Source: a virus | Lineage: Duplodnaviria; Heunggongvirae; Uroviricota; Caudoviricetes | DNA length: 49,856 nucleotides | Virus record (IMG/VR): IMGVR_UViG_3300029003_000089 | Direction: 5' to 3' (one strand) | Shown here: one piece after another, positions 1 through 43,113 of the stretch | Numbering within the stretch: position 1 is the stretch's first letter | Layout: each line of letters opens with the position of its first letter | Program-made: the position numbers and the translations under genes | The notes under the pieces: generated by a model | The model's input: only the letters and a program-made list of their open reading frames with translations | Database searches by the model: none | Told to the model about the DNA's origin: nothing

Positions 1-1410
1 TACTATCGGATAAGTGGATTGGCTATCAGCAGAGATCGTCGGCGACGAATCTCCATCCAGTGTAAAAGACGAATCAGCCGTCGAGACACCACTATCAGTA
101 ACGCTAATATTCATCACGGCATAGTTGGAAACGTTGCCTCTGTTATCCTGTACTGTGGCTCCAACATTCCACGAATTTACACCTTCGCTTTTATAAGCCG
201 GTAAAGTGATCTGCCATGATGTGCCATTTCCACTGATCTTGCCGCCAGCCGCAGTGAATGCACTATCATTCCACTGTACAGACTTGATACCACCACTAGC
301 ATTGTTGATTGTCAGTGTTACAGGGATGATTGATTCCCCCTCCCCCTGAACAGACTCTGGCAAACTGATTTTCAGTGCATGCTTCTTCTTGTACTCCAGA
401 ACAATGTTGTTATTTCGTTCAACAAAATCATAACGCCGGTTCTGGACTTCTCGCATAACTGCAACATTATCGCTGCTAAGCTGTTCAGCCAAGGAAACGC
501 CCGGGCGATAATTAAACTCAACACCAAAGGTTGTATCGTGAGTGTTGCTCTGTCCTTGCTTATGCTGTGCAGAAAACTTAATCAGAGGAACTGGTGTATA
601 AGAAATTCCCCCAGTAACTGCGTAAGGGTTTTCCTGCAGGTTATCGCTTCCAAATAACCCGACATTTTTACCATAATATTTTTCAAACTGAATAGATGCC
701 CCTAATTGCGGATAAGCAGGTAGCCATCCTTCAGCAGAAAAATCCCAGCCATTTGCAGGTCTTTCCAGATAATCATCAATATCACGACTGTTCTTCCAGT
801 CAGATAGACCAAAATAGGTATTTACACCAAGCCTGAAATAATCCCTCCAGTACTCAACCCCAAAACCTGCACGAGAGTGACTACGACTTAAATCGTAATC
901 ATAGAAAACATTCGCACCCAACATTGCGTTATCAGGAGTGAAATGACGAATCCCCAAACCAATATTGGTCTGATTTCGGTCATCAGTACGATGTAGTGAT
1001 GTCTGACTGAATAACACATAATCCTGAGTATCCAGCCATGGATATAAAAAGTCGAATGATGAATCCTTCAAGGAAAAAGAATCATCGACATTAAGCTTGA
1101 TGCGCGCATTGCCATATTGTTGCAACCAGTCGACGACCTCTTTTGTCGCCTGAGTTGATAAAGTATTTACAGCAAAACTACTTGCATTATTATTCGCCAG
1201 GCTCTGACCTGCACTTGCTGCAAATGAGGCCACTTTATTTGCATGCTCATCGCTGGCATAAATTTGCGTAACATCTTTATTACCAGATGATGCAAAACTG
1301 TTTGCTGGGATCAAAGAAAGAGAAACTGGAGATAATATCTGGGTAACAATTACCGACCATGTAATCGCGCCAGATGCAGTTTTTTTTAACTTTTTATTCA
1401 CAGTGGTCAT
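1..1410 (-). CDS. Inverse autotransporter (intimin/invasin family) outer-membrane protein, N-terminal 470 codons; 3' end lies beyond window start
   Basis: ATG at 1410-1408 (MTTVNKKLKK...). Hand translation of the first ~130 codons and the last 20 codons shows no stop; the middle of the frame was not checked. Beta-barrel-type motifs present (e.g. DSSFDFLYPWLDTQD). AT-rich upstream region 1411-1659. Not in the ORF track because no stop in window. Confidence 0.55.
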   Translation of the reverse strand, partial: MTTVNKKLKKTASGAITWSVIVTQILSPVSLSLIPANSFASSGNKDVTQIYASDEHANKVASFAASAGQSLANNNASSFAVNTLSTQATKEVVDWLQQYGNARIKLNVDDSFSLKDSSFDFLYPWLDTQDYVLFSQTSLHRTDDRNQTNIGLGIRHFTPDNAMLGANVFYDYDLSRSHSRAGFGVEYWRDYFRLGVNTYFGLSDWKNSRDIDDYLERPANGWDFSAEGWLPAYPQLGASIQFEKYYGKNVGLFGSDNLQENPYAVTGGISYTPVPLIKFSAQHKQGQSNTHDTTFGVEFNYRPGVSLAEQLSSDNVAVMREVQNRRYDFVERNNNIVLEYKKKHALKISLPESVQGEGESIIPVTLTINNASGGIKSVQWNDSAFTAAGGKISGNGTSWQITLPAYKSEGVNSWNVGATVQDNRGNVSNYAVMNISVTDSGVSTADSSFTLDGDSSPTISADSQSTYPIV

Positions 1411-1659
1411 AGTTCAATCAACGTTATGAATATAATGAAAAAAATAACTGGTATGACAAGAGGCGCGAAATATACAGCTCGTTACAAAAAAATCAACTCA
1501 AAAATAAAATAAAATCTCTGCATAAACTTTATGGCTAAATGATTTCACAACAATGGAAGAAAAATTTTGTTGCTCACGCAATCAATCATTTCGGGCGTTA
1601 CAACTAGTCCTAAATTATATTCGCTAGGTATACTTTATTTTTAAGCTAATACTTTAGCT

Positions 1660-2361
1660 CTATTTCATCGCTCCTTTCAGCCCGAACTTAGCTTTGATTT
1701 CTGCGATCTTCGCCAGAGCCTGTGCACGATTTAGAGGCCTACCGCCCATGACAGGAAGTTGTTTTACTGGTTCAGGTATAGCCTCACCACGGTTAATTCG
1801 CGCGGTCATACAGGCCAGTTCATCGGCAGCCTTGCGCCGTAATTCCGCGTCAGTCAACGCATTGGCCCGCATGTTCTGATACAGGTTGGTAACCAGCCAG
1901 TAGTGCGCGTTTGATTTCCACGGATAAGACTCTGCATCCGGATACAGACCACGCTTCCGGCAATACTCGTAAACCATATCAACCAGCTCGCTGACGTTTG
2001 GCAGCCCGGCGGTAACGGATGCTTCTTCCCGGCACCATGCAACAAACTGCCCGGGTGATGGCAGAAATGGTCTATTCTGCCGACGGGCAACACGCATTCC
2101 GGCGCTCACCTGCTCCATCGTGGTGATCCCGTTTTCCCGGAAAGCCAGAACCCACTGGCGGCGGATTTCGTTCAGTTCGTTCTGGTCACGATTAGCCAGG
2201 CTCGCCGGGAAAGTTGCCAGTAACTGGCTGAATACACCGTTGATTATCTGCGCTACCTGCTGTACCTGCGGCTTTTCGTCGTACTGTTCCGGCATGTTGT
2301 TGGCGATCCGACGCATCTGCTCACGGTCAAAGTTAATCATCTGTGCGGCGATGTTTTTCAT
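1660..2361 (-). CDS. P: Replication protein P (DnaB helicase loader), lambda P-like
   Basis: 233 aa translation matches remembered lambda P nearly end to end (MKNIAAQM..NFDREQMRRIANNMPEQYDEKPQVQQ...); overlaps O stop by 4 bp. Confidence 0.9.
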   Translation of the reverse strand: MKNIAAQMINFDREQMRRIANNMPEQYDEKPQVQQVAQIINGVFSQLLATFPASLANRDQNELNEIRRQWVLAFRENGITTMEQVSAGMRVARRQNRPFLPSPGQFVAWCREEASVTAGLPNVSELVDMVYEYCRKRGLYPDAESYPWKSNAHYWLVTNLYQNMRANALTDAELRRKAADELACMTARINRGEAIPEPVKQLPVMGGRPLNRAQALAKIAEIKAKFGLKGAMK

Positions 2362-3287
2362 AGATCCACCCCGTAAATCCAGTCTGTGTTTGTCAGGTCG
2401 AGTTTTGGTTTGCTAGCTGTCACGCCTGCCTGTTGCTTGTTACGGTTGATTTCGAGTTGGGTCCACTTGTCGCGGAGTTTGGCCGGACTTAGCACGTTAC
2501 CGGACCAGAAGTTGTCCTGGCATGCCCAGCGGAACAGCACGCACATGTCGCGGTGGTTACGTCCGTCACGTTCACGCATCAGGCGGATATCGTTAGCCCA
2601 CCCTGCAAAATTCGGTTTTCTGGCTGATGGCGCGATGGTCTTCACCATGTCAAACATCCACTCTGCGGCGGTCAGGTCTTCTGCTGTCCCCCACTTGCTG
2701 CCGCTCTGAATTGCAGCATCCGGTTTCACCACAGGAAGATCGTTTTCTGGTTGGTCAGAGGATTCGCCAGAATTCTCGGACGAAAAAGGTTTTATATTGT
2801 CTTTTGTTAGTTTGTCTTTTGTGTTTACCTGATTCGGGTAAACGCCTTTACCTGATTTGGGTAAACTTTTTTTACCTGATTCAGGTAAATTTACCTCTTT
2901 CAGGTAAACTTTATTTTTCTTACCTGATTCGGGTAATGTTGACCATTCACTGACCACATTATTAATGCCGGTATTCCGCCCGCTCTGAATAAAAATCCCA
3001 CGCTTTACCAGAACACTTTTTGCAGCAGAACACTTGTGCGGCAATATCCCGGTTAATTCGGAAAGTTGCTCGTTGCTAACCCAATCCAGTTTTTTATTAA
3101 AGCCATATGTTTTGCGCATGACAGCCAGGAAGACCAGAAGCTGGTGCTGTGTTAATCCGGCCAGCATCACAGCTTCCAGCAACTCATTTGCAATGCGCGT
3201 ATAACCATCATCGAGATCTGCCACGCGCGGCTCCTTTTGTGCCGCATCCGGCACTGGAAAATTGAATATCTCAGCAGTGTTTGCCAT
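2358..3287 (-). CDS. O: Replication initiator O-like protein
   Basis: Lambda O-like N-terminal region (VADLDDGY..., LRKTYG.N) starting at internal Met (MANTAEIFNF); ORF track extends to 3377 but the first 30 codons overlap the upstream gene; iteron repeats lie inside the gene as in lambda ori. Confidence 0.8.
   Translation of the reverse strand: MANTAEIFNFPVPDAAQKEPRVADLDDGYTRIANELLEAVMLAGLTQHQLLVFLAVMRKTYGFNKKLDWVSNEQLSELTGILPHKCSAAKSVLVKRGIFIQSGRNTGINNVVSEWSTLPESGKKNKVYLKEVNLPESGKKSLPKSGKGVYPNQVNTKDKLTKDNIKPFSSENSGESSDQPENDLPVVKPDAAIQSGSKWGTAEDLTAAEWMFDMVKTIAPSARKPNFAGWANDIRLMRERDGRNHRDMCVLFRWACQDNFWSGNVLSPAKLRDKWTQLEINRNKQQAGVTASKPKLDLTNTDWIYGVDL
2826..2936. repeat. Origin-like iterons inside O gene: five copies of TACCTGATTCGGGTAAAC-like inverted-repeat elements
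   Basis: Direct reading: tacctgattcgggtaaac / tacctgatttgggtaaac / tacctgattcaggtaaa / tacctctttcaggtaaac / tacctgattcgggtaa; translated as the PESGKK repeats in O. Confidence 0.8.
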
Positions 3288-3373
3288 AATTCCTCCCGCA
3301 ATGAGTGTGTTACGATTTGCACCTGAAAGTCGGTTCTGTTCGCGCAGACCGGCTTTTGCCATTTCTGAACCTG

Positions 3374-3919
3374 TCATATTGCCCCCAGCATGGTGGTGAC
3401 CATCGCCATCAATGGACCAGCCAGGTCCGGGTCCACACGAAACATCGACACAATGCCTTCACTCATCTCCTTCAGTTTCTGGTGGCGTGGTGCGTTGAGA
3501 ATGACAGCCTGTTTTGCCTCACTGAGTTCCTTTTCCATTTCAGCCAGCCGAGCCATGAAGCTATCCTGCTCAACCAAGTGGCCGCGATATTCCAGCGGTA
3601 GTACCGCCAGAATTGCCGGGGTCAATTCACGCACGTTATTTCGGTATTTTTCAGAATCGAATTTGTTATCGAGGAAGCGGAACAGCTTCTGGCGTGCACG
3701 GCTGACATCATCAGGGAAATCGATGGTGCCGCCGCCCTGCTCCCGATACTCATTCACAATGAGTGTGGCAACGACATCCTGATTATCTACAGCCGACCAG
3801 GCGCGGACGGCATCACGGATTTTTTCGTGGCCTGGCACCTGTTTTGTTTGAGAACGATTTATCACCGCTGTCGGGCTAAATCCGCTAGTCTGTTGGTATG
3901 TAAGTGGTTGCATAGTCAT
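3374..3919 (-). CDS. YdaT-family protein (cII-position early gene)
   Basis: 181 aa; motif LTPAILAVLPLEYRGHL resembles remembered Rac YdaT (LIPAILAILPRELRHRL); position between cro-like gene and O. Confidence 0.45.
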   Translation of the reverse strand: MTMQPLTYQQTSGFSPTAVINRSQTKQVPGHEKIRDAVRAWSAVDNQDVVATLIVNEYREQGGGTIDFPDDVSRARQKLFRFLDNKFDSEKYRNNVRELTPAILAVLPLEYRGHLVEQDSFMARLAEMEKELSEAKQAVILNAPRHQKLKEMSEGIVSMFRVDPDLAGPLMAMVTTMLGAI

Positions 3920-3943
3920 TGCCTTATCAGTTAACGCCGCAGT

Positions 3944-4177
3944 TTAGGCGGCAGAATTACTCGCGTTAAACAATGGTGCGAGGTCGGGACGAATATCTGC
4001 TGGTTTAATCTTTCCACCAGTGGCTGAGACAATTTTCATTACATAGCGGGCATCAATTCCGCCACCGTGTAGCCAACGCCAAACAGTGGGTTGGGCTACA
4101 CCGCATAGATCTGCCAGTCGTTTTTGACTACCTGTAATACTGATTGCGAGTTGAATGGTTTGATTTGTCATTATCAA
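3944..4177 (-). CDS. Cro/YdaS-like HTH regulator
   Basis: 77 aa; HTH segment GSQKRLADLCGVAQPTVWRW; divergent from repressor gene. Confidence 0.6.
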   Translation of the reverse strand: MIMTNQTIQLAISITGSQKRLADLCGVAQPTVWRWLHGGGIDARYVMKIVSATGGKIKPADIRPDLAPLFNASNSAA

Positions 4178-4281
4178 TTCCTATTGGTATTGCAATGAAC
4201 AGATAATAGCAATGCGTATCAACCCATTCAATAGCAAAACGTGTTTTGACCATCAATACGCAAGCGTATAAATTAAAACTT
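4178..4281. promoter_or_regulatory. Divergent immunity promoter/operator region (oR-like) of prophage A
   Basis: Intergenic between divergent cro-like and cI-like genes; repeated motif AATAGCAAT(N3)TATCA at 4205-4221 plus related ATTGCAAT (4188-4201) and AATAGCAAA (4230-4241). Confidence 0.55.
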
Positions 4282-4974
4282 ATGAAAAAAGAAACTCTTG
4301 CTGATCGCTTAAACCTAGCGATGGAACAATCTGGAATGTCTCAAGGCGCTCTTGCAAAGGCGTCTGGCGTAGCTCAACCCACAATCTGGAGACTGACAAG
4401 CGGCAACGCGCGCGGCTCAACAAAAATTGTTGAAATAGCTAATGCATTGGGTGTTCGAACAGAGTGGCTCTCATCAGGCATAGGCCCGATGAGAAATGAC
4501 GGTCAACAATCAGGAAAGCCTGCTGTCAACCATTCCAAATACTTCAAGATTGACGTTCTTGATATAGAAGTCAGTGCTGGGCCGGGCGTCATCAACCGTG
4601 AGTTTGTAGAAGTCCTACGCTCGGTTGAGTACTCGTTTGACGATGCTCGTCACATGTTCGATGGCAGGAAGGCAGAAAATATCCGCATCATTAACGTACG
4701 CGGTGACAGCATGTCAGGAACGATCGAACCAGGTGATCTGCTGTTCGTTGATATCACGGTTAAATCTTTCGACGGTGATGGTATCTATGCGTTTCTGTAC
4801 GACGACACAGCCCATGTAAAGCGCCTGCAAATGATGAAAGATAAGCTACTGGTTATCTCTGATAACAAGAGCTACTCACCGTGGGACTCGATCGAGAAAG
4901 ACGAGATGAACCGGGTGTTCATTTTCGGGAAGGTTATTGGCAGTATGCCGCAGACGTATAGGAAACACGGATAA
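4282..4974 (+). CDS. CI-like repressor, N-terminal HTH plus C-terminal LexA-like S24 peptidase domain
   Basis: ATG at 4282 (MKKETLADRLN...) gives 230 aa, same length as prophage B repressor; C-terminal motifs INVRGDSM and KRLQ typical of autocleaving repressors; ORF track start 4246 is TTG. Confidence 0.85.
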   Translation: MKKETLADRLNLAMEQSGMSQGALAKASGVAQPTIWRLTSGNARGSTKIVEIANALGVRTEWLSSGIGPMRNDGQQSGKPAVNHSKYFKIDVLDIEVSAGPGVINREFVEVLRSVEYSFDDARHMFDGRKAENIRIINVRGDSMSGTIEPGDLLFVDITVKSFDGDGIYAFLYDDTAHVKRLQMMKDKLLVISDNKSYSPWDSIEKDEMNRVFIFGKVIGSMPQTYRKHG

Positions 4975-5053
4975 TCAGCTGCGTGCTGATGAGGCTTTTG
5001 GGTAATGCGCTGAAAGAATTCTTTATAAAAATAACATTACGGGAAAGGCAAAA

Positions 5054-5323
5054 ATGAGTGATAAAAAACTTATAAAAAAATCAAATAACTGTGTAGATGC
5101 ATATGCTGATGCATTTGGATATTCATCTTTTGGGGAAGATGACGATCGCTTAGGCTCCATATCTTTCTTTCAGCATGTTACAGAATGGGGCGCTGATGGT
5201 AGTAATGACACTGAAAACGTAAAGTACAACATTGCAACAATTCGCATGACGGAAGATTTAATGCTTAAACTCGCTGACTTTATTCGCGATCAGCATGATA
5301 GAGCTAAAACCAATAAGTCATAA
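5054..5323 (+). CDS. Hypothetical small acidic protein, first gene of cI-downstream cassette
   Basis: 89 aa ORF, same strand as cI, 80 bp downstream; no recognisable domain. Confidence 0.45.
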   Translation: MSDKKLIKKSNNCVDAYADAFGYSSFGEDDDRLGSISFFQHVTEWGADGSNDTENVKYNIATIRMTEDLMLKLADFIRDQHDRAKTNKS

Positions 5324-5331
5324 TATTAACA

Positions 5332-5772
5332 ATGAAACACGGTTATTACGAAGCTCCAAACCTAACTGAAAAGCTTGAACAAGCGGCAAGATCATCATCT
5401 TTGCATACTGCAGCATTTTCTCAATCAGCTGGTATGTCTGGCGGTAATGTACCTATGCTACAATCAAGTGGTAGCGGTGGCTCTGGGAGTAATAATGTGC
5501 TTGAATCGAAAGTTGCAAAGCTTGAGTCTGATGTGTCCTATATCCGACGTGACGTTGATGAGCTTAAGACAGATGTCAAATCTATCGACAGAAACATGAT
5601 CGCTGTTCTGGAGCGACTCGATTCAATAAAAGATTCACTAGCCAAAAAACCCTCCATCGATGCTGTCGATAGAAAGGTTTCAGACGCAAAGCTTGCGGTA
5701 TTGCTTGGTGTTCCAGCAATCATCGCTGCAGGAACAGGTCTTTATAAGCTATCAATGTACTTTTTTCTTTAG
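5332..5772 (+). CDS. Hypothetical coiled-coil protein with C-terminal transmembrane anchor (XhlA-like architecture)
   Basis: 146 aa; Gly/Ser-rich linker, heptad-like segment LESKVAKLESDVSYIRRDVDELKTDVKSIDRNMIAVLERLDSIKDSL, C-terminal hydrophobic LAVLLGVPAIIAAGTGLYKL; 9 bp after previous ORF. Confidence 0.5.
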   Translation: MKHGYYEAPNLTEKLEQAARSSSLHTAAFSQSAGMSGGNVPMLQSSGSGGSGSNNVLESKVAKLESDVSYIRRDVDELKTDVKSIDRNMIAVLERLDSIKDSLAKKPSIDAVDRKVSDAKLAVLLGVPAIIAAGTGLYKLSMYFFL

Positions 5773-5848
5773 TGCTTAAGAAACTGCTCGCCACCTTGCA
5801 TTACGCAAAGCGATTTTTCATTCCCTATTACCCTTTCTTATCCATCTA

Positions 5849-5878
5849 AACCCGGCCCCAGTGCCGGGTTTTCTTTTG
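5849..5878 (+). terminator. Rho-independent terminator after cI-downstream cassette
   Basis: aacccggc cccagt gccgggtt followed by ttcttttg. Confidence 0.65.
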
Positions 5879-6004
5879 CCTTCCCCTCATCACACAAACC
5901 GTTCAAAAAACCACCACGACCTCGCTTCAGTTATCGCTATGCGATGCAAGTCACAAAATTAATTCTTTTTGCTATCAAACATTTAATATCAAAACACATT
6001 TAAT

Positions 6005-6046
6005 AATAGCAATAAGTATTGATATCACCAATAGCAATGGCTATCA
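6005..6046. promoter_or_regulatory. oL-like operator pair of prophage A
   Basis: aatagcaataagtattga and aatagcaatggctatca share the AATAGCAAT..TATCA motif with the cro/cI intergenic region. Confidence 0.5.
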
Positions 6047-6143
6047 TCACCATGTCGCAACAACACAACGATACGGCAACCACCTGATTCACCGTTGCGA
6101 TGACCGCTTAGATCCGCAGCTTGATTTCAGCAGGCTTCGGGGA

Positions 6144-6530
6144 GTGCGAGGGGTGAAACGGACGCGTGAACGTCGGTGTGACCAGCTGAAATCAACTCAA
6201 CACTTCATACCTCAGTCGCTTCAACGAGGCGGCTTAGTTATGACAACCGGCGGCCATCCACCGCCTGAATGCGCGCAGAAGTCTCTATATGTTCAGCAGC
6301 CCAGCTTACGGGCAGGAGTTTTTATGGTTCATCAACATTACGGAACGCAGACCGTTAATCGCGGTGCGGTCATGCCAGGAATGCTGGTCAAACACAAAGA
6401 TGGTACCTGGACTGCATCAGCTAATTTACGCGGACGGCTTTATCTGCATCGCGGCATCGAGCGCACTTATACCCGTGATTTGCTCGTGGAAGTTTTTCTC
6501 GACGGACGCGGCAACGGCCTGAATCACTAA
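6144..6530 (+). CDS. Hypothetical early-left-operon protein (kil/cIII position), GTG start
   Basis: 128 aa ORF between oL-like sites and gam; Arg-rich N-terminus (VKRTRERR); no confident homology. Confidence 0.3.
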
Positions 6531-6605
6531 TCCCCTTTCCTGTTTACCTAATCAGCCCGGCATTTCGCAGGCGATATTTTCACAGCCATTTTCAGGAGTT
6601 CAGCC

Positions 6606-6902
6606 ATGAACGCTTATTACATTCAGGATCGTCTTGAGGCTCAAAGCTGGGCGCGTCACTACCAGCAGATCGCCCGTGAAGAGAAAGAGGCAGAACTGGC
6701 AGACGACATGGAAAAAGGTCTTCCACAGCACCTGTTTGAATCACTCTGCATCGATCATTTGCAACGCTGCGGGGCCAGCAAAAAAGCCATTACCCGTGCG
6801 TTTGATGACGATGTTGAGTTTCAGGAGCGCATGGCAGAACACATCCGGTACATGGTTGAAACCATTGCTCACCACCATGTTGATATTGATTCAGAGGTAT
6901 AA
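6606..6902 (+). CDS. gam: Gam (RecBCD inhibitor), lambda-like short form
   Basis: 98 aa translation [21 protein letters not shown]... matches remembered lambda Gam. Confidence 0.9.
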
Positions 6903-6907
6903 AACGG

Positions 6908-7693
6908 ATGAGTACAGCACTCGCAACGCTGGCTGGGAAGCTGGCTGAACGTGTCGGCATGGATTCTGTCGACCCACAGGAACTGATCACCACTCTTCGT
7001 CAGACGGCATTTAAAGGTGATGCCAGCGATGCGCAGTTCATCGCATTGCTGATCGTCGCCAACCAGTACGGCCTTAATCCGTGGACGAAAGAAATTTACG
7101 CCTTCCCTGATAAGCAGAACGGCATCGTTCCGGTGGTGGGCGTTGATGGCTGGTCCCGCATCATCAATGAAAACCAGCAGTTTGATGGCATGGACTTTGA
7201 GCAGGACAATGAATCATGTACGTGCCGGATTTACCGCAAAGACCGCAATCATCCGATCTGCGTTACCGAATGGATGGATGAATGCCGCCGCGAACCATTC
7301 AAAACTCGCGAAGGCAGAGAAATCACGGGGCCGTGGCAGTCGCATCCCAAACGGATGTTACGGCATAAAGCCATGATTCAGTGTGCCCGTCTGGCCTTCG
7401 GATTTGCTGGTATCTATGACAAGGATGAAGCCGAGCGCATTGTCGAAAATACTGCATACACTGCGGAACGTCAGCCGGAACGCGACATCACTCCGGTTAA
7501 CGATGAAACCATGCAGGAGATTAACACTCTGCTGATTGCCCTGGACAAAACATGGGATGTCGACTTATTGCCGCTCTGTTCCCAGATATTTCGCCGCGAC
7601 ATTCGCGCATCGTCAGAACTGACACAGGCCGAAGCAGTGAAAGCTCTTGGATTCCTGAAACAGAAAGCCACTGAGCAGAAGGTGGCAGCATGA
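6908..7693 (+). CDS. bet: Bet (Red-beta single-strand annealing recombinase)
   Basis: 261 aa translation matches remembered lambda Bet essentially throughout. Confidence 0.95.
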
Positions 7694-8370
7694 CACCGGA
7701 CATTATCCTGCAGCGTACCGGGATCGACGTGAGAGCTGTCGAACAGGGGGATGATGCATGGCACAAATTACGGCTCGGCGTCATCACCGCTTCAGAAGTT
7801 CACAACGTGATAGCAAAGCCCCGCTCAGGAAAGAAGTGGCCTGACATGAAAATGTCCTACTTCCACACCCTGCTGGCTGAGGTTTGCACCGGTGTGGCTC
7901 CGGAAGTTAATGCTAAGGCGCTGGCGTGGAGAAAACAGTACGAGAACGACGCCAGAACCCTGTTTGAATTCACTTCCGGCGTGAATGTTACTGAATCCCC
8001 GATCATCTATCGCGACGAAAGTATGCGCACCGCCTGCTCTCCCGATGGTTTATGCAGTGACGGCAATGGCCTTGAGCTGAAATGCCCGTTTACCTCCCGG
8101 GATTTCATGAAGTTCCGGCTCGGTGGTTTCGAGGCCATAAAGTCGGCTTACATGGCCCAGGTGCAGTACAGCATGTGGGTGACACGAAAAGATGCCTGGT
8201 ACTTTGCCAACTATGACCCACGAATGAAGCGTGAAGGCCTGCATTATGTCGTGGTTGAGCGGGATGAAAAGTACATGGCGAGTTTTGACGAGATGGTGCC
8301 GGAGTTCATCGAAAAAATGGACGAAGCACTGGCTGAAATTGGTTTTGTATTTGGAGAGCAATGGCGATGA
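7690..8370 (+). CDS. exo: Exo (Red-alpha 5'-3' exonuclease)
   Basis: 226 aa translation matches remembered lambda Exo; overlaps bet stop (ATGA). Confidence 0.95.
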
Positions 8371-8549
8371 CCCATCCTCACGATAATATCCGGGTAGGCG
8401 CGATCACTTTCGTCTACTCCGTTACAAAGCGAGGCTGGGTATTTCACGGTCTTTCTGTTATCCGAAATCCGCTGAAAGCCCAGCGGCTGGCTGAGGAGAT
8501 AAATAATAAACGGGGGGCGGTATGCACAAAGCATCTCCTGTTGAGTTAA
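8361..8549 (+). CDS. Hypothetical small protein
   Basis: 62 aa ORF in operon context after exo. Confidence 0.35.
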
Positions 8550-8713
8550 GAACGAGTATTGATTTGGCACATAGCCTTGCTCAAATTGGAGTCAGGTTTG
8601 TGCCAATACCAGCAGAAACAGACGAAGAATTTCATACGTTAGCCACATCCCTTTCACAAAAGCTGGAAATGATGGTGGCGAAAGCAGAAGCAGATGAGAG
8701 AGACCAGGTATGA
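8522..8713 (+). CDS. Hypothetical small protein
   Basis: 63 aa ORF, same strand. Confidence 0.3.
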   Translation: MHKASPVELRTSIDLAHSLAQIGVRFVPIPAETDEEFHTLATSLSQKLEMMVAKAEADERDQV

Positions 8714-8723
8714 CAACCACTGA

Positions 8724-9005
8724 ATGCATTTTTCTGGCAGCGGGCTTCATATTCTGTGTGCTTATGCTTGCCGACATGGGGCTTGTTCAGTGACACCTCA
8801 GCAAGAAAACGCCCTTCGCAGCATTGCCCGTCAGGCTAATTCTGAAATCAAAAAAGTCAGACAGCAGTTTCCGGATAAAAACGTCAATGACATTTGCCGT
8901 AGCGTACTGAAGAAGCACCGCGAAACGGTAACGCTGAAGGGATTCACACCGACTCATTTAAGCCTGGCAATCGGCATGTTAAACGGCGTCTTTAAGGAAC
9001 GATGA
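8724..9005 (+). CDS. Hypothetical protein
   Basis: 93 aa ORF; real start may be internal. Confidence 0.35.
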   Translation: MHFSGSGLHILCAYACRHGACSVTPQQENALRSIARQANSEIKKVRQQFPDKNVNDICRSVLKKHRETVTLKGFTPTHLSLAIGMLNGVFKER

Positions 9006-9103
9006 ACATGAAAAGCAAAATTATCAGGGAGCTACAGGCTCCTTTTTTATTGTTCGCATTCACCCTCAAGCGTATTAACCAACAGTTCAGGGATTAATGA
9101 AAG

Positions 9104-9325
9104 ATGGCAGACATCATTGATTCAGCATCAGAAATAGAAGAATTACAGCGCAACACAGCAATAAAAATGCGCCGCCTGAACTACCTGGCTGTATCTGCCA
9201 CTCATTGTTGTGAGTGTGGCGATCCGATAGATGAACGAAGACGCCTGGCCGTTCAGGGTTGTCGGACTTGCGCCAGTTGCCAGCAAGATCTGGAGCTTAT
9301 CCGCAAACAAAGGGGGATTAAGTGA
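9104..9325 (+). CDS. TraR/DksA-type C4 zinc-finger protein
   Basis: 73 aa with CxxC...CxxC (CCECGDPIDERRR...CRTCASC). Confidence 0.6.
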   Translation: MADIIDSASEIEELQRNTAIKMRRLNYLAVSATHCCECGDPIDERRRLAVQGCRTCASCQQDLELIRKQRGIK

Positions 9326-9651
9326 TGGCTAACCTGCAACTTGCTGTTAAAAGTGAATACTTCGATGCCATGATTCGCGGAGAGAAAACGGAAGAGTATC
9401 GCTTGTGTAATGACTACTGGAATAAGCGAATTATGTTCCGGGAATATGACCGCCTGATTATCACAAAGGGATATCCGAAGCGCGACGATTCCAGTCGCAG
9501 AATTGATGTTCCGTATGACGGATATGAAGTGAAGACAATCACACATCCGCACTTTGGCGATAAACCGGTAAAGGTGTTCGCTATAAAGGTGAATATCAGC
9601 ACTGAATATCAATCCGCACAACACAAGGTCAAGAATGTTCAGAGTGATTGA
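9322..9651 (+). CDS. Hypothetical protein
   Basis: 109 aa ORF, start overlaps previous stop. Confidence 0.4.
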   Translation: MMANLQLAVKSEYFDAMIRGEKTEEYRLCNDYWNKRIMFREYDRLIITKGYPKRDDSSRRIDVPYDGYEVKTITHPHFGDKPVKVFAIKVNISTEYQSAQHKVKNVQSD

Positions 9652-9874
9652 CCCTAACACCTGGTACGTCGACCACCACGGCACTCCCTGCAAAATCCTG
9701 CGTTCTACCCACAACAAAGTTCACTACATCCGAAAAGGCAGAACATGTATCGCCAGCATGTTCCGCTTTAATCATGACTTTGAACCTGTGAATAAAGCTG
9801 ATGCAGATCGGATAGCAGAAGAGATCGAAACGGCAGAACACATTAAGAAGTTACGTGACATGCGCAGGAAATAG
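9635..9874 (+). CDS. Hypothetical protein
   Basis: 79 aa ORF. Confidence 0.35.
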   Translation: MFRVIDPNTWYVDHHGTPCKILRSTHNKVHYIRKGRTCIASMFRFNHDFEPVNKADADRIAEEIETAEHIKKLRDMRRK

Positions 9875-10013
9875 AAAAATTGATAAATTCAATACTGCAT
9901 TTCTCAGCATTAAATTTATCTCTATGACCAGTCAAGAGATGTACCTGCCATGAGCTTAATATCATGTCAGATATATCGGTCACAAACTCCCTCAGCAGCT
10001 AAGAGGAGGACAA

Positions 10014-10250
10014 ATGTCTCGACTAATCACTTTACAGGACTGGGCTAAAGAAGAATTTGGGGACTTAGCACCAAGTGAGCGAGTTCTGAAAAAATACGCG
10101 CAAGGGAAAATGATGGCCCCACCCGCTATAAAAGTTGGTCGCTACTGGATGATTGACCGAAATTCCCGTTTTGTAGGAACGCTTGCAGAACCGCAACTCC
10201 CAATAAACGCAAACCCAAAACTCCAAAGGATAATCGCTGATGGCTGCTAG
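10014..10250 (+). CDS. xis: Excisionase (Xis-like)
   Basis: 78 aa; TLQDWAKE...RVLKKYA...PPAIKVGRYW resembles lambda Xis; overlaps int start; SD aggagg upstream. Confidence 0.6.
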   Translation: MSRLITLQDWAKEEFGDLAPSERVLKKYAQGKMMAPPAIKVGRYWMIDRNSRFVGTLAEPQLPINANPKLQRIIADGC

Positions 10251-11382
10251 ACCCCGATCTCACAAAATCTCTATACCCAATTTATATTGCAAATTAGATA
10301 AGCGAACCGGAAAGGTATATTGGCAATACAAACATCCACTATCCGGTCGTTTTCATAGCTTAGGAACTGATGAGAATGAAGCAAAACAAGTTGCTACTGA
10401 AGCAAATACCATTATTGCTGAACAACGTACCAGACAAATATTAAGCGTCAATGAGCGTCTGGAAAGAATGAAAGGCAGGCGCTCAGACATTACGGTGACA
10501 GAATGGCTTGATAAATATATTTCTATCCAAGAGGACAGGCTGCAACATAATGAACTAAGACCCAACTCCTATCGGCAAAAAGGCAAACCCATTCGTCTTT
10601 TCCGTGAGCATTGTGGAATGCAACACCTCAAGGATATTACCGCACTTGATATTGCCGAAATAATTGATGCTGTAAAGGCTGAAGGTCATAACAGGATGGC
10701 GCAAGTCATGAGAATGGTGTTGATCGACGTCTTCAAAGAAGCACAACACGCAGGACATGTTCCGCCAGGATTTAACCCAGCGCAGGCAACAAAACAACCG
10801 CGAAATCGAGTAAACCGCCAAAGATTGTCACTGCCCGAATGGCAGGCAATATTTGACAGCGTAAGCAGACGGCAGCCCTATTTAAAATGCGGCATGCTAC
10901 TTGCTCTTGTTACTGGACAACGTTTAGGCGATATCTGCAATTTGAAATTCTCTGATATATGGGACGACATGTTGCACATTACTCAGGAAAAAACCGGTTC
11001 AAAACTTGCTATTCCGCTTAACCTGAAATGCGATGCTCTGAATATTACCCTTCGTGAAGTTATATCTCAGTGCAGGGATGCTGTTGTTAGTAAATATCTG
11101 GTCCATTACCGTCACACTACCTCTCAAGCAAACAGAGGAGACCAGGTTTCTGCAAATACTCTGACAACGGCTTTTAAAAAGGCCCGGGAAAAATGTGGCA
11201 TAAAATGGGAGCAAGGAACTGCGCCCACATTTCATGAGCAGCGATCTCTGTCAGAACGGTTATATCGGGAACAGGGTCTGGATACGCAAAAGTTGTTAGG
11301 CCATAAATCCAGAAAAATGACCGACCGATACAATGATGATCGTGGTAAAGACTGGATTATCGTAGATATCAAAACAGCATAG
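10240..11382 (+). CDS. int: Tyrosine integrase, e14 IntE family (icd-targeting)
   Basis: 380 aa; clear paralog of the second integrase at 47603-48730 (shared blocks MAARPR, LLALVTGQRLGDI, KFSDIWDD, TFHEQRSLSERLY, LLGHK); adjacent to icd 3' fragment. Confidence 0.9.
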   Translation: MAARPRSHKISIPNLYCKLDKRTGKVYWQYKHPLSGRFHSLGTDENEAKQVATEANTIIAEQRTRQILSVNERLERMKGRRSDITVTEWLDKYISIQEDRLQHNELRPNSYRQKGKPIRLFREHCGMQHLKDITALDIAEIIDAVKAEGHNRMAQVMRMVLIDVFKEAQHAGHVPPGFNPAQATKQPRNRVNRQRLSLPEWQAIFDSVSRRQPYLKCGMLLALVTGQRLGDICNLKFSDIWDDMLHITQEKTGSKLAIPLNLKCDALNITLREVISQCRDAVVSKYLVHYRHTTSQANRGDQVSANTLTTAFKKAREKCGIKWEQGTAPTFHEQRSLSERLYREQGLDTQKLLGHKSRKMTDRYNDDRGKDWIIVDIKTA

Positions 11383-11392
11383 AAAATAGCCA

Positions 11393-11433
11393 GTTTTGGG
11401 GAAGGGTTTTGGGGAAAGTTTTGGGGAAGATTT
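11393..11433. repeat. Three tandem TTTTGGGGAA repeats, candidate integrase arm-type sites
   Basis: agttttggggaagggttttggggaaagttttggggaag immediately after int stop and near the att/icd junction. Confidence 0.4.
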
Positions 11434-11458
11434 TACATCATCATAAAACAACGGGCGT

Positions 11459-11482
11459 GTTATACGCCCGTTTCAATATTTA
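11459..11482. terminator. Bidirectional hairpin between convergent int and icd fragment
   Basis: acgggcgt gttat acgcccgt with T-rich flanks on both strands. Confidence 0.5.
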
Positions 11483-11500
11483 ACACATGTAGTGATTACA

Positions 11501-11660
11501 TATTCTTGATGATCGCGTCACCAAACTCTGAACATTTCAGCAGTTTAGCGCCTTCCATCAGACGTTCGAAGTCATAGGTTACGGTCTTGGCATTGATTGC
11601 GCCTTCCATACCTTTAACAATCAGGTCAGCCGCTTCAGTCCAACCCATATGGCGCAGCAT
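11501..11660 (-). pseudogene. icd: icd (isocitrate dehydrogenase) 3'-terminal fragment, att-associated duplicate
   Basis: Minus-strand translation [58 protein letters not shown] matches remembered Icd C-terminus; upstream frame closed by stop. Confidence 0.8.
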
Positions 11661-41968: not shown

Positions 41969-43113
41969 TTGCGCCCCCTTACCTCTGAAGGGTTCAGCGA
42001 CAAATTTATGAGGCAGGCCAGTGCCGAAGCATCATTAATATAGTCATACAAGCTAACAGCCAGCGGAGATTCGGCTTTTGCCAACATAGGATAAAGCTGC
42101 TGCAGCCAGACCTGATGAATTGATGAAATGTAGGAATAGAGAACGCTGGCGTTATGTGCAACGTCGCTCAGTACAGAGGGATTTGAAAGCTGTTTCTCCA
42201 TCTGGTTAAAGGCATTGATGTATGCCTCTTTGAACTGGGCAGCACGTTTACCCGTGAAACCCATAGCAAGAAACGCAAAGCCGTCGCGGGTTATTTGATA
42301 GCAAGGTAGTTTGCGGCCTGTGCAATCGGTGTAATCACTCACCGAAAAATTGCGGGAAGTGAATGATGCAGAGCATTCAAGCGTGCGGATCTTTTTCAGT
42401 ACATCGTCATGACGTTTGGAGAAGAAGTTGGCAACAGCCAGGGATGAAGTAACAGCCTGACCATCAACGATGGCAATTTCAGGTTGAGTGAGGGTTGGGA
42501 TCGTAGCCATGATGGCAGCCTCCGATAACAGTGAATTACCTTCACCACCGGAAACGCCAATTTCGCTGGTGGTGAACTGAACGGGGTTGGCGTAACCGGC
42601 GTTATCGGAAACCGGCGCACCTTTCGGTGCCCCCGTCCAGCCCACCATAATTTGGGTGTGCACAGACGCAGACGATAAAAAAGACGCTGGCGCGTCATAT
42701 ATCGCCGATAACATTTCCAGGACGCCAATCCCGGCACCCGCTTTATAAGGTGCCTGAACAGTGTAACGTCCCGGAATGGCAGAATCAATGTGCTGGTGGT
42801 CCTTCACACTCAACAAAATCACGCCTGAATTTCCACAAAGGACTAAAGCACTCATGCGGGTAGTCTTTGCGAAGATAGATAACGCGCTGTGTTTCTGGCT
42901 CCCAACGAATAACATGGACATAAAGCCCTCTTCCGTCACGAAACCAGCGGTTAAGTTCCTGCACAACTCGCCCCCCACAGTCAGGTAAAGTTCTCTGTGG
43001 TTACTTACAGACAGGTGATTTGGTAATCTGCATTCATGCCGTAACAACAGGTGTTCAGCGACACTGACCACCAGCTGTTGCGACAAACGGTTATTTGCCG
43101 TTAAACTGTTCAT
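41965..43113 (-). CDS. Rha-family phage regulatory protein with ~200-aa N-terminal extension of unknown function
   Basis: Rha-like block (AVANFFSKRHDDVLKKIRTL...YQITRDGFAFLAMGFTGKRAAQFKEAYINAF) at residues ~215-300; ATGA overlap with upstream gene at 43110-43113; alternative internal start at 42510 with GGAGG. Confidence 0.5.
   Translation of the reverse strand: MNSLTANNRLSQQLVVSVAEHLLLRHECRLPNHLSVSNHRELYLTVGGELCRNLTAGFVTEEGFMSMLFVGSQKHSALSIFAKTTRMSALVLCGNSGVILLSVKDHQHIDSAIPGRYTVQAPYKAGAGIGVLEMLSAIYDAPASFLSSASVHTQIMVGWTGAPKGAPVSDNAGYANPVQFTTSEIGVSGGEGNSLLSEAAIMATIPTLTQPEIAIVDGQAVTSSLAVANFFSKRHDDVLKKIRTLECSASFTSRNFSVSDYTDCTGRKLPCYQITRDGFAFLAMGFTGKRAAQFKEAYINAFNQMEKQLSNPSVLSDVAHNASVLYSYISSIHQVWLQQLYPMLAKAESPLAVSLYDYINDASALACLINLSLNPSEVRGRK

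Follow-up and report, generated by a model that had tools for sequence, protein, structure and literature searches.

The stretch of DNA analysed here, which we refer to in its entirety as the window, is the IMG/VR virus record IMGVR_UViG_3300029003_000089 (49,856 nucleotides; Caudoviricetes). Directly behind its cI-type repressor gene the window carries a cassette of two small genes, orfA and orfB, which, judging from the sequence, is part of the cI transcription unit, being flanked by the cI stop codon and the terminator of the operon. The two genes occupy the position of lambda rexA-rexB, and the cassette follows a rexAB-like genomic logic while lying outside that family. It is repressor-operon prophage cargo from undescribed protein families and is probably an exclusion module. 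More specifically, and by analogy with known systems, we tentatively favour reading it as a mobile two-gene moron that would give the lysogen phage exclusion through a membrane event. The features on which the argument draws are the following (aa, amino acids; nt, nucleotides):

4976–5847, plus strand: swappable cassette, delimited by loss and regain of homology to phages with other cargo
5054–5323, plus strand: orfA, encoding an 89-aa acidic soluble protein (phrog_4231), the partner of OrfB
5332–5772, plus strand: orfB, encoding a protein of 146 aa (phrog_3556)
5485–5499, plus strand: candidate internal start in orfB, GGGAG (5485–5489), 7 nt, then GTG (5497–5499, codon 56)
5692–5769, plus strand: region coding for the predicted C-terminal membrane helix of OrfB, from hydropathy and alignment
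3944–4177, minus strand: YdaS-type cro-like gene, followed by a divergent operator/promoter region
4246–4274, plus strand: pRM-like promoter TTGACC-17-TAAATT, from a consensus scan (9/12)
4282–4974, plus strand: cI-type repressor, first gene of the operon, with helix-turn-helix and S24 peptidase domains (Peptidase_S24, 1e-18; phrog_4, 2e-69)
5848–5880, plus strand: intrinsic terminator of the cI operon, t_imm-like, part of the backbone and outside the cassette
6005–6047, plus strand: oL-like operators with an overlapping pL-like promoter, the downstream edge of the slot

Cassette boundaries and the repressor operon

To delimit the cassette we used five phages that carry other cargo: 4A7, PhiR30_1 and PhiR68_2, the cI of which is 96–97% identical to that of the window, and PhiR26_1 and IdasGreatGrand, which are of another immunity type. 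Their alignment to the window ends at 4972–4975 and restarts at 5848–5850, which puts the breakpoints at the stop codon of cI and at the base with which the terminator stem begins. The first-pass annotation, made from the sequence alone, had placed a two-gene cassette with its own terminator in the rexAB-equivalent slot. While the slot (before oL/pL) and the clean intrinsic terminator after orfB are as described, the terminator does not belong to the cassette: since homology is regained at 5848–5850 in phages with other cargo, it is shared backbone, and the cassette is confined to 4976–5847. The cassette is AT-rich (38–44% GC, as compared to 50–54% in the flanks) and, with its presence/absence polymorphism, sharp boundaries and atypical base composition, has the hallmarks of a moron.

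The cassette is carried by 201 of 5426 complete E. coli genomes (3.7%), always as one chromosomal copy; the 201 copies fall into three identity bands, and the carriers include the O26:H11 lineage of enterohaemorrhagic E. coli. Two immunity types carry it, and each of them is likewise found with other cargo. Between the two types, cI identity is only 52% in the DNA-binding domain but rises to 99% in the C-terminal S24 domain, and nucleotide homology starts at 4418, inside cI. This joint reads as a recombination point within cI that exchanges immunity specificity.

The likely source of cassette transcription is the pRM-like promoter, to which we assign this function by analogy with lambda pRM. 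Its −10 element ends 8 nt upstream of the cI ATG at 4282, the start also given by the Prokaryotic Genome Annotation Pipeline in the record of the identical prophage of E. coli Rb-23, and this spacing suggests that the cI mRNA is leaderless or near-leaderless, as in lambda. The terminator scan found none between cI and orfA and a strong one after orfB, with a 9-bp stem containing 6 GC pairs (5848–5871) and, after it, a T-rich tail, TCTTTTGCCT. Given this position, with the cI stop codon on one side and the terminator of the operon on the other, orfA and orfB are expected to be co-transcribed with cI, and the pair would be made in the lysogen from the cI promoter(s). At the downstream edge of the slot, AATAGCAAT operator repeats at 6005 and 6030, which recur at oR (4205 and 4230), overlap the pL-like promoter (6019–6047), and downstream of this promoter lie kil, gam, bet and exo. 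From the gene order cro-like / cI / orfA-orfB / pL / kil-gam-bet-exo, the plus strand here corresponds to the leftward direction of lambda.

The slot downstream of cI is a cargo hotspot. Behind the same or a similar cI, other phages have a 353-aa protein together with an ASCH protein (the PADLOC candidate PDC-M11A/B), a DUF6932 protein together with a 310-aa protein (PDC-M63A/B), or a single BamE-like lipoprotein. The cI–N interval has been described as a mosaic hotspot that houses the abortive-infection systems rexAB and bstA (PMC8585504). The BamE-like lipoprotein (126 aa; locus L018, 3182–3562, and locus L006, 5474–5854) stands alone in E. coli phage PhiR26_1 and is also found, at 78% identity, just 3′ of the cassette’s relative in Citrobacter prophages.

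Relatives of the cassette occur at further kinds of position. In P22-like prophages (Salmonella UPF_BP1, Serratia, Leclercia) an orfA-type pair directly follows mnt, whose stop codon overlaps the start of orfA, and lies between the tailspike/ant side and gene 16, where P22 has sieA, orf59a and mnt (PMC10883804). Relatives with a different upstream partner, a member of phrog_5893, stand after unrelated cI-type repressors in Citrobacter, Phaseolibacter and an Enterobacteriaceae metagenome-assembled genome (MAG), and in Pantoea, Citrobacter and Raoultella prophages further copies form opposite-strand morons within tail modules. Each of the three kinds of position is one at which genes active in a repressed prophage are typically found. 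A scan of genome contigs yielded 9 loci, too few for statistics.

The two proteins and the candidate internal start

Judging by substitution rates, family matches and conservation, orfA and orfB are real genes and not chance open reading frames, in agreement with how the first-pass annotation had drawn them. Compared with an 81%-identical E. coli variant found in O26:H11 and other strains, the ratio of nonsynonymous to synonymous substitution rates (dN/dS) is 0.08 for orfA and 0.24 for orfB (0.43 over the first 55 codons and 0.14 in the core). OrfA matches phrog_4231 (E 2e-49) and OrfB matches phrog_3556 (E 8e-54), both PHROG families of unknown function.

OrfA has an isoelectric point (pI) of 4.98. 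AlphaFold2 predicts three antiparallel strands followed by a C-terminal helix, with a mean predicted local distance difference test score (pLDDT) of 78. Its family is tiny: among 1.84 billion representatives, the OrfA profile retrieved 15 clusters at 90% identity and 10 at 50%. The two weakest of the clusters are repeat proteins, one of them WD40-like, and we regard them as spurious. OrfA had 0 matches in PADLOC-DB v2 and none among PDB sequence profiles. It is presumably a cytoplasmic protein that is translationally coupled to OrfB.

OrfB (pI 7.9) has the build that the first-pass annotation proposed: after a variable N-terminus (residues 1–45) come a Gly/Ser tract (46–55), a coiled-coil helix with V/I/L heptads (54–105), a conserved KKP break and a hydrophobic C-terminal helix (~121–146). 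The AlphaFold2 model agrees, with a low-confidence short helix (10–25), a disordered Gly/Ser-rich segment (26–53) and helices at 54–105 and 109–145. Kyte-Doolittle hydropathy peaks at 1.8, with the maximum at 119–137. OrfB has no signal peptide and a single hydrophobic segment, with basic residues on the N-terminal side of the hydrophobic helix; the protein is therefore predicted to be a C-tail-anchored inner-membrane protein with ~120 residues in the cytoplasm. The C-terminal region contains residues that are invariant across the family (A119, K120, L121, L124, L125, G126, P128, T135, Y138 and K139).

OrfB homologues form 92 clusters (Escherichia, Salmonella, Citrobacter, Klebsiella, Enterobacter, Pantoea, Erwinia, Serratia and Dickeya). 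In the alignments the conserved core runs from MLEARVAKLESDVSYIRRDVDELK through the membrane helix; upstream of it lies the glycine tract, and before the tract a hypervariable N-terminus of ~35–55 residues. There are at least three C-terminal core types on this same plan, and the orfA-linked Serratia and Raoultella genes add two. The gene just upstream of orfB homologues encodes either an OrfA homologue or a phrog_5893 member (~136–153 aa), the two families being unrelated by hhalign (probability 0.1%), and the spacing between partner and orfB-type gene is always tight (2–9 nt or overlapping). Nucleotide homology is mosaic in the same sense: Salmonella phage UPF_BP1 shares only 5028–5534 of the window, that is, orfA and orfB codons 1–67, while the Citrobacter and MAG relatives share only 5498–5766, that is, orfB from codon 56 on. 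It follows that the partner and the N-terminus travel as one unit and the core as another, which, at the level of sequence, fits an adaptor-effector design.

The junction between the two units coincides with a candidate translation start. A Met residue is found 1–2 residues after the glycine tract in 40 of the 42 family members, and in the window and its 99% twin its place is taken by Val, encoded by GTG; the glycine codons that precede this position read as GGAGG-like strings. We scanned 11 genes for pairing with the 3′ tail of 16S rRNA as a test for Shine-Dalgarno (SD) signals. The strongest anti-SD site of the entire gene lies just upstream of the internal start codon in 9/11, and in all 11 the internal site ranks in the top ~1% (≤1.5%) and is stronger than the site at the annotated start. 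The signal is also present in the genes from Serratia and Raoultella, which have unrelated linkers and cores. Furthermore, some annotation pipelines call the short form (for example, the 91-aa E. coli entry P0011), and the mosaic joint to the Citrobacter and MAG homologues, at 5498, falls at the internal start. Together this suggests a second, shorter OrfB product: initiation at the GTG of codon 56 would yield a core-only protein of 91 aa. The first 55 codons form an open frame that is conserved as protein and begins next to the orfA stop codon, and it is therefore plausible that the gene makes a long as well as a short product.

Separately, the antisense strand of orfB contains a hairpin resembling a terminator, with TTTTTT after it (5650–5676, minus strand), across the codons of the invariant KKP. 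The promoter scan detected no antisense promoter for it, and the hairpin may be a by-product of the Lys codons.

Candidate functions and related systems

Profile and structure searches placed neither protein in a curated family and returned coiled-coil noise. To this we attribute the sub-threshold matches of OrfA and OrfB in the Pfam, NCBIfam and PADLOC scans (FlaC_arch, Lpp, and coiled-coil segments of GajA and Rad50). The best PADLOC-DB v2 matches of OrfB (E 0.006–0.05) lie on coiled-coil segments of ATPases, its PDB matches are to generic coiled coils only (Lpp, the P22 tail needle gp26 and GCN4, E > 0.007), and we do not read the gp26 match as homology. Foldseek against viral structures gave no match at E ≤ 0.001. 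The literature text, searched by accession and locus tag, and the DefensePredictor supplements do not mention the pair. Brenes & Laub (2025) reportedly screened E. coli prophage genes against temperate phages, and the pair may be among those tested.

In arrangement, the cassette resembles RexAB: in both systems two genes lie between the cI stop codon and the immunity-region terminator, upstream of oL/pL (PMC8585504), and in both a cytoplasmic protein is paired with a membrane protein. As the first-pass annotation had supposed, the sequences are unrelated (no significant PADLOC model and no Pfam match for either product). RexB is polytopic and channel-like, whereas OrfB has one C-terminal membrane helix and a long cytoplasmic coiled coil, and OrfA, at 89 aa, is far smaller than RexA. 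BstA shares the conserved placement 3′ of prophage repressors and the presumed use of the repressor promoter (PMC8585504), but it consists of one large protein that associates with DNA and has an aba self-immunity element; it is unrelated to OrfA and OrfB in sequence and architecture. In the UPF_BP1, Serratia and Leclercia prophages the orfA/orfB pair takes the slot of sieA (genes 16–9, beside mnt). SieA resides in the inner membrane and is expressed in the lysogen; it is single and polytopic and has a cytoplasmic FxRYPxEAxxFNK motif (PMC10883804), while OrfB lacks the motif and has one hydrophobic segment. In these prophages the slot thus holds two genes, one of them for a tail-anchored membrane protein, and an injection block by OrfB is unsupported. 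Finally, the conserved in-frame internal start with its SD signal, here a candidate for producing long and short membrane isoforms, recalls SieB/Esc and lambda S107/S105. P22 sieB encodes two distinct peptides, switched by the sas RNA (PMC13397905); unlike in that system, the scan of the window found no antisense promoter, and there is no sequence similarity.

The location within the repressor operon, repeated capture behind maintenance repressors that are unrelated to each other (cI and Mnt), free reassortment with immunity type and the arms-race-like variability of partner and adaptor lead us to regard the cassette as a lysogen-expressed cargo module. Because it has these features and sits in the cI–N hotspot that also hosts rexAB and bstA (PMC8585504), we favour exclusion as its function; the defence role would be guilt by association, drawn from context. 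In the tentative scheme that we prefer, OrfB would oligomerise through its coiled coil, with the highly conserved membrane helix as the effector end, and OrfA would bind or regulate the variable N-terminal tail of OrfB. OrfA would then be the sensor or brake, and OrfB the membrane effector against superinfecting phages. The membrane event could be a Rex-like depolarisation, premature firing of the incoming phage’s holin or, at the inner membrane, a barrier to DNA entry. Premature holin triggering is considered because OrfB has an XhlA-like build (PMC5589764), and as OrfB is nearly all cytoplasmic and has a soluble partner, a sensor-effector mechanism seems more likely than a classical injection block. 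A short OrfB made from the internal GTG, which would lack the putative partner-binding tail, would probably modulate the long form.

A bolder version, which we consider doubtful, is that the cassette is the founding example of a modular family of abortive-infection or exclusion systems of Enterobacterales prophages, with a tail-anchored effector, interchangeable sensors and two isoforms. The hypervariable N-terminus would be an adaptor that links the conserved effector to phrog_4231 or phrog_5893 sensors, and an internal ribosome-binding site within the glycine-linker codons would give a short form that tunes, or self-immunises against, the long form, a role akin to SieB/Esc or holin/antiholin pairs.

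Several observations weigh against exclusion as the function. Neither protein is significant in Pfam, NCBIfam, PADLOC or PDB, and nothing links them to a proven defence protein; almost entirely cytoplasmic, OrfB is a poor fit to a classical injection blocker. The hotspot argument is weakened because the PDC neighbours are untested predicted defence candidates (10.1101/2024.01.29.577857), of which PDC-M63AB gave no defence in one native-host test (PMC12409345), and the lipoprotein cargo shows that the contents of the slot need not all be defence. That partner and N-terminus are inherited together may be no more than the result of recombination at the border of the conserved core, and since Gly codons are naturally G-rich, the SD-like motif could in part be a by-product. 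Core-only genes of ~100 aa, with no partner, are present at one chromosomal site in several Pantoea species, and the core may therefore have a housekeeping-type role.

The Pantoea cores bear on other explanations as well. It is unlikely, in our estimation, that the pair is a toxin-antitoxin-like addiction or stress module in which OrfB or its short form is a membrane toxin and OrfA the antidote, stabilising the prophage or inducing dormancy with any anti-phage effect being secondary. A small acidic protein encoded first and a membrane protein second (pI 4.98 and 7.9), the small sizes, the tight or overlapping spacing suggestive of coupled translation, and a conserved transmembrane helix with Gly, Pro and Thr that suggests a pore or oligomer would all suit such a module. 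Yet neither the Pfam nor the NCBIfam scans revealed similarity to known toxin-antitoxin families, partner-less chromosomal cores are hard to square with a constitutively toxic core, and the cassette is always at lysogen-expressed cargo positions, as defence and conversion genes are. The same solitary Pantoea cores, kept at one chromosomal site, speak for a lysogenic-conversion factor that alters host physiology, with OrfB as a tail-anchored scaffold for envelope stress, ribosomes or division, as do the BamE-like lipoprotein, which occupies the same slot and has no obvious defence role, and the many conversion genes of the same prophage (iss, lom, inverse autotransporter). We rate this explanation lower, since the hypervariable N-terminus and partner swapping look like an arms race rather than housekeeping, and the Pfam and NCBIfam scans gave no similarity to tail-anchored coiled-coil host families.

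The first-pass annotation also likened OrfB to XhlA-type membrane proteins. This holds for the architecture: XhlA (Bacillus prophage PBSX, PF10779) is likewise a small protein that has a cytoplasmic coiled coil at its N-terminus and one membrane helix at its C-terminus. It does not extend to membership of the Pfam family, as OrfB scores 11.5 bits (E 0.35) against a gathering threshold of 34.7, and even P0087, one of the type-2 relatives that NCBI names ‘hemolysin XhlA’, remains below it at 25.2 bits (E 1.9e-5). XhlA acts with the holin XhlB, whose membrane partner it is, and the endolysin XlyA, all encoded in a lysis cassette (PMC5589764). OrfB, in contrast, is encoded beside cI and pL-kil and has an extra N-terminal tail and a dedicated partner. 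While the shared architecture, the naming of the type-2 relatives and a dual-start signature like that of holin genes are what a true XhlA-like lysis-clock or holin-associated factor would show, with OrfB helping or restraining the phage’s own holin and the isoforms being holin/antiholin-like, we consider such a role improbable. In no context examined does the pair adjoin genes for holins or endolysins, the lysis genes of the identical Rb-23 prophage are ~12 kb off, beyond Q, and placement in repressor operons (cI, Mnt) implies expression while the lysis genes are silent. That the two genes are non-functional filler, chance reading frames or decaying remnants in a recombination hotspot, could be argued from the lack of curated family matches, but is effectively refuted: both are under purifying selection, OrfB has its homologue clusters across Enterobacterales, and the pair is kept across three kinds of genomic position in several genera.

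The surrounding prophage and the significance of the cassette

Over positions 1–11660 the window matches, with 99.96% identity, a lambda-like prophage that is integrated at icd in E. coli Rb-23; this prophage also has Q, lysis, head and tail genes. The identity stops at 11660, inside the 3′ end of icd (11496–11660). From there to 49856 the window holds a second prophage (tail, head and terminase-sized reading frames) that is missing from Rb-23, and the source strain therefore seems to carry two tandem prophages at icd. In the second prophage, Rfam places a C4 antisense RNA (82.8 bits) beside an isrK Hfq-binding RNA (63.7 bits) at 42565–42753 on the minus strand, and these matches mark the region as a locus for antirepressor control, of the P1/P7 or Gifsy type. 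In Rb-23 the major capsid gene is split by a satellite-like insert (locus L036, 18196–28541) with genes for an integrase, a primase and a TIR-domain protein as well as capsid and decoration genes of its own.

Within the first prophage, positions 1–1410 (minus strand) belong to a ~4.3 kb inverse autotransporter gene of the intimin/invasin type, located in the nin region directly after the replication gene P; the gene is a large moron of the virulence type. No N-like antiterminator gene separates the pL-like promoter from kil; instead, a leader of ~275 nt (6048–6323) leads directly into kil-gam-bet-exo, an arrangement conserved in all related phages seen. The leader may contain a nut- or put-like RNA element, or that arm may have no N-type antitermination.

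The interval between repressor and pL is the home of lambda RexAB and of BstA, and cataloguing the cargo found there can lead to new mechanisms of phage-phage competition. The orfA-orfB cassette is common in E. coli, is mobile between lambdoid and P22-like phages and is not a member of any described family. Should it turn out not to be a defence system, it would be a warning against inferring function from hotspot position alone. If it is one, it would provide a compact (~0.9 kb) model of signal transfer from the cytoplasm to a membrane effector with a single helix, and possibly a new case of two proteins being made from one gene by means of an internal start in linker codons.

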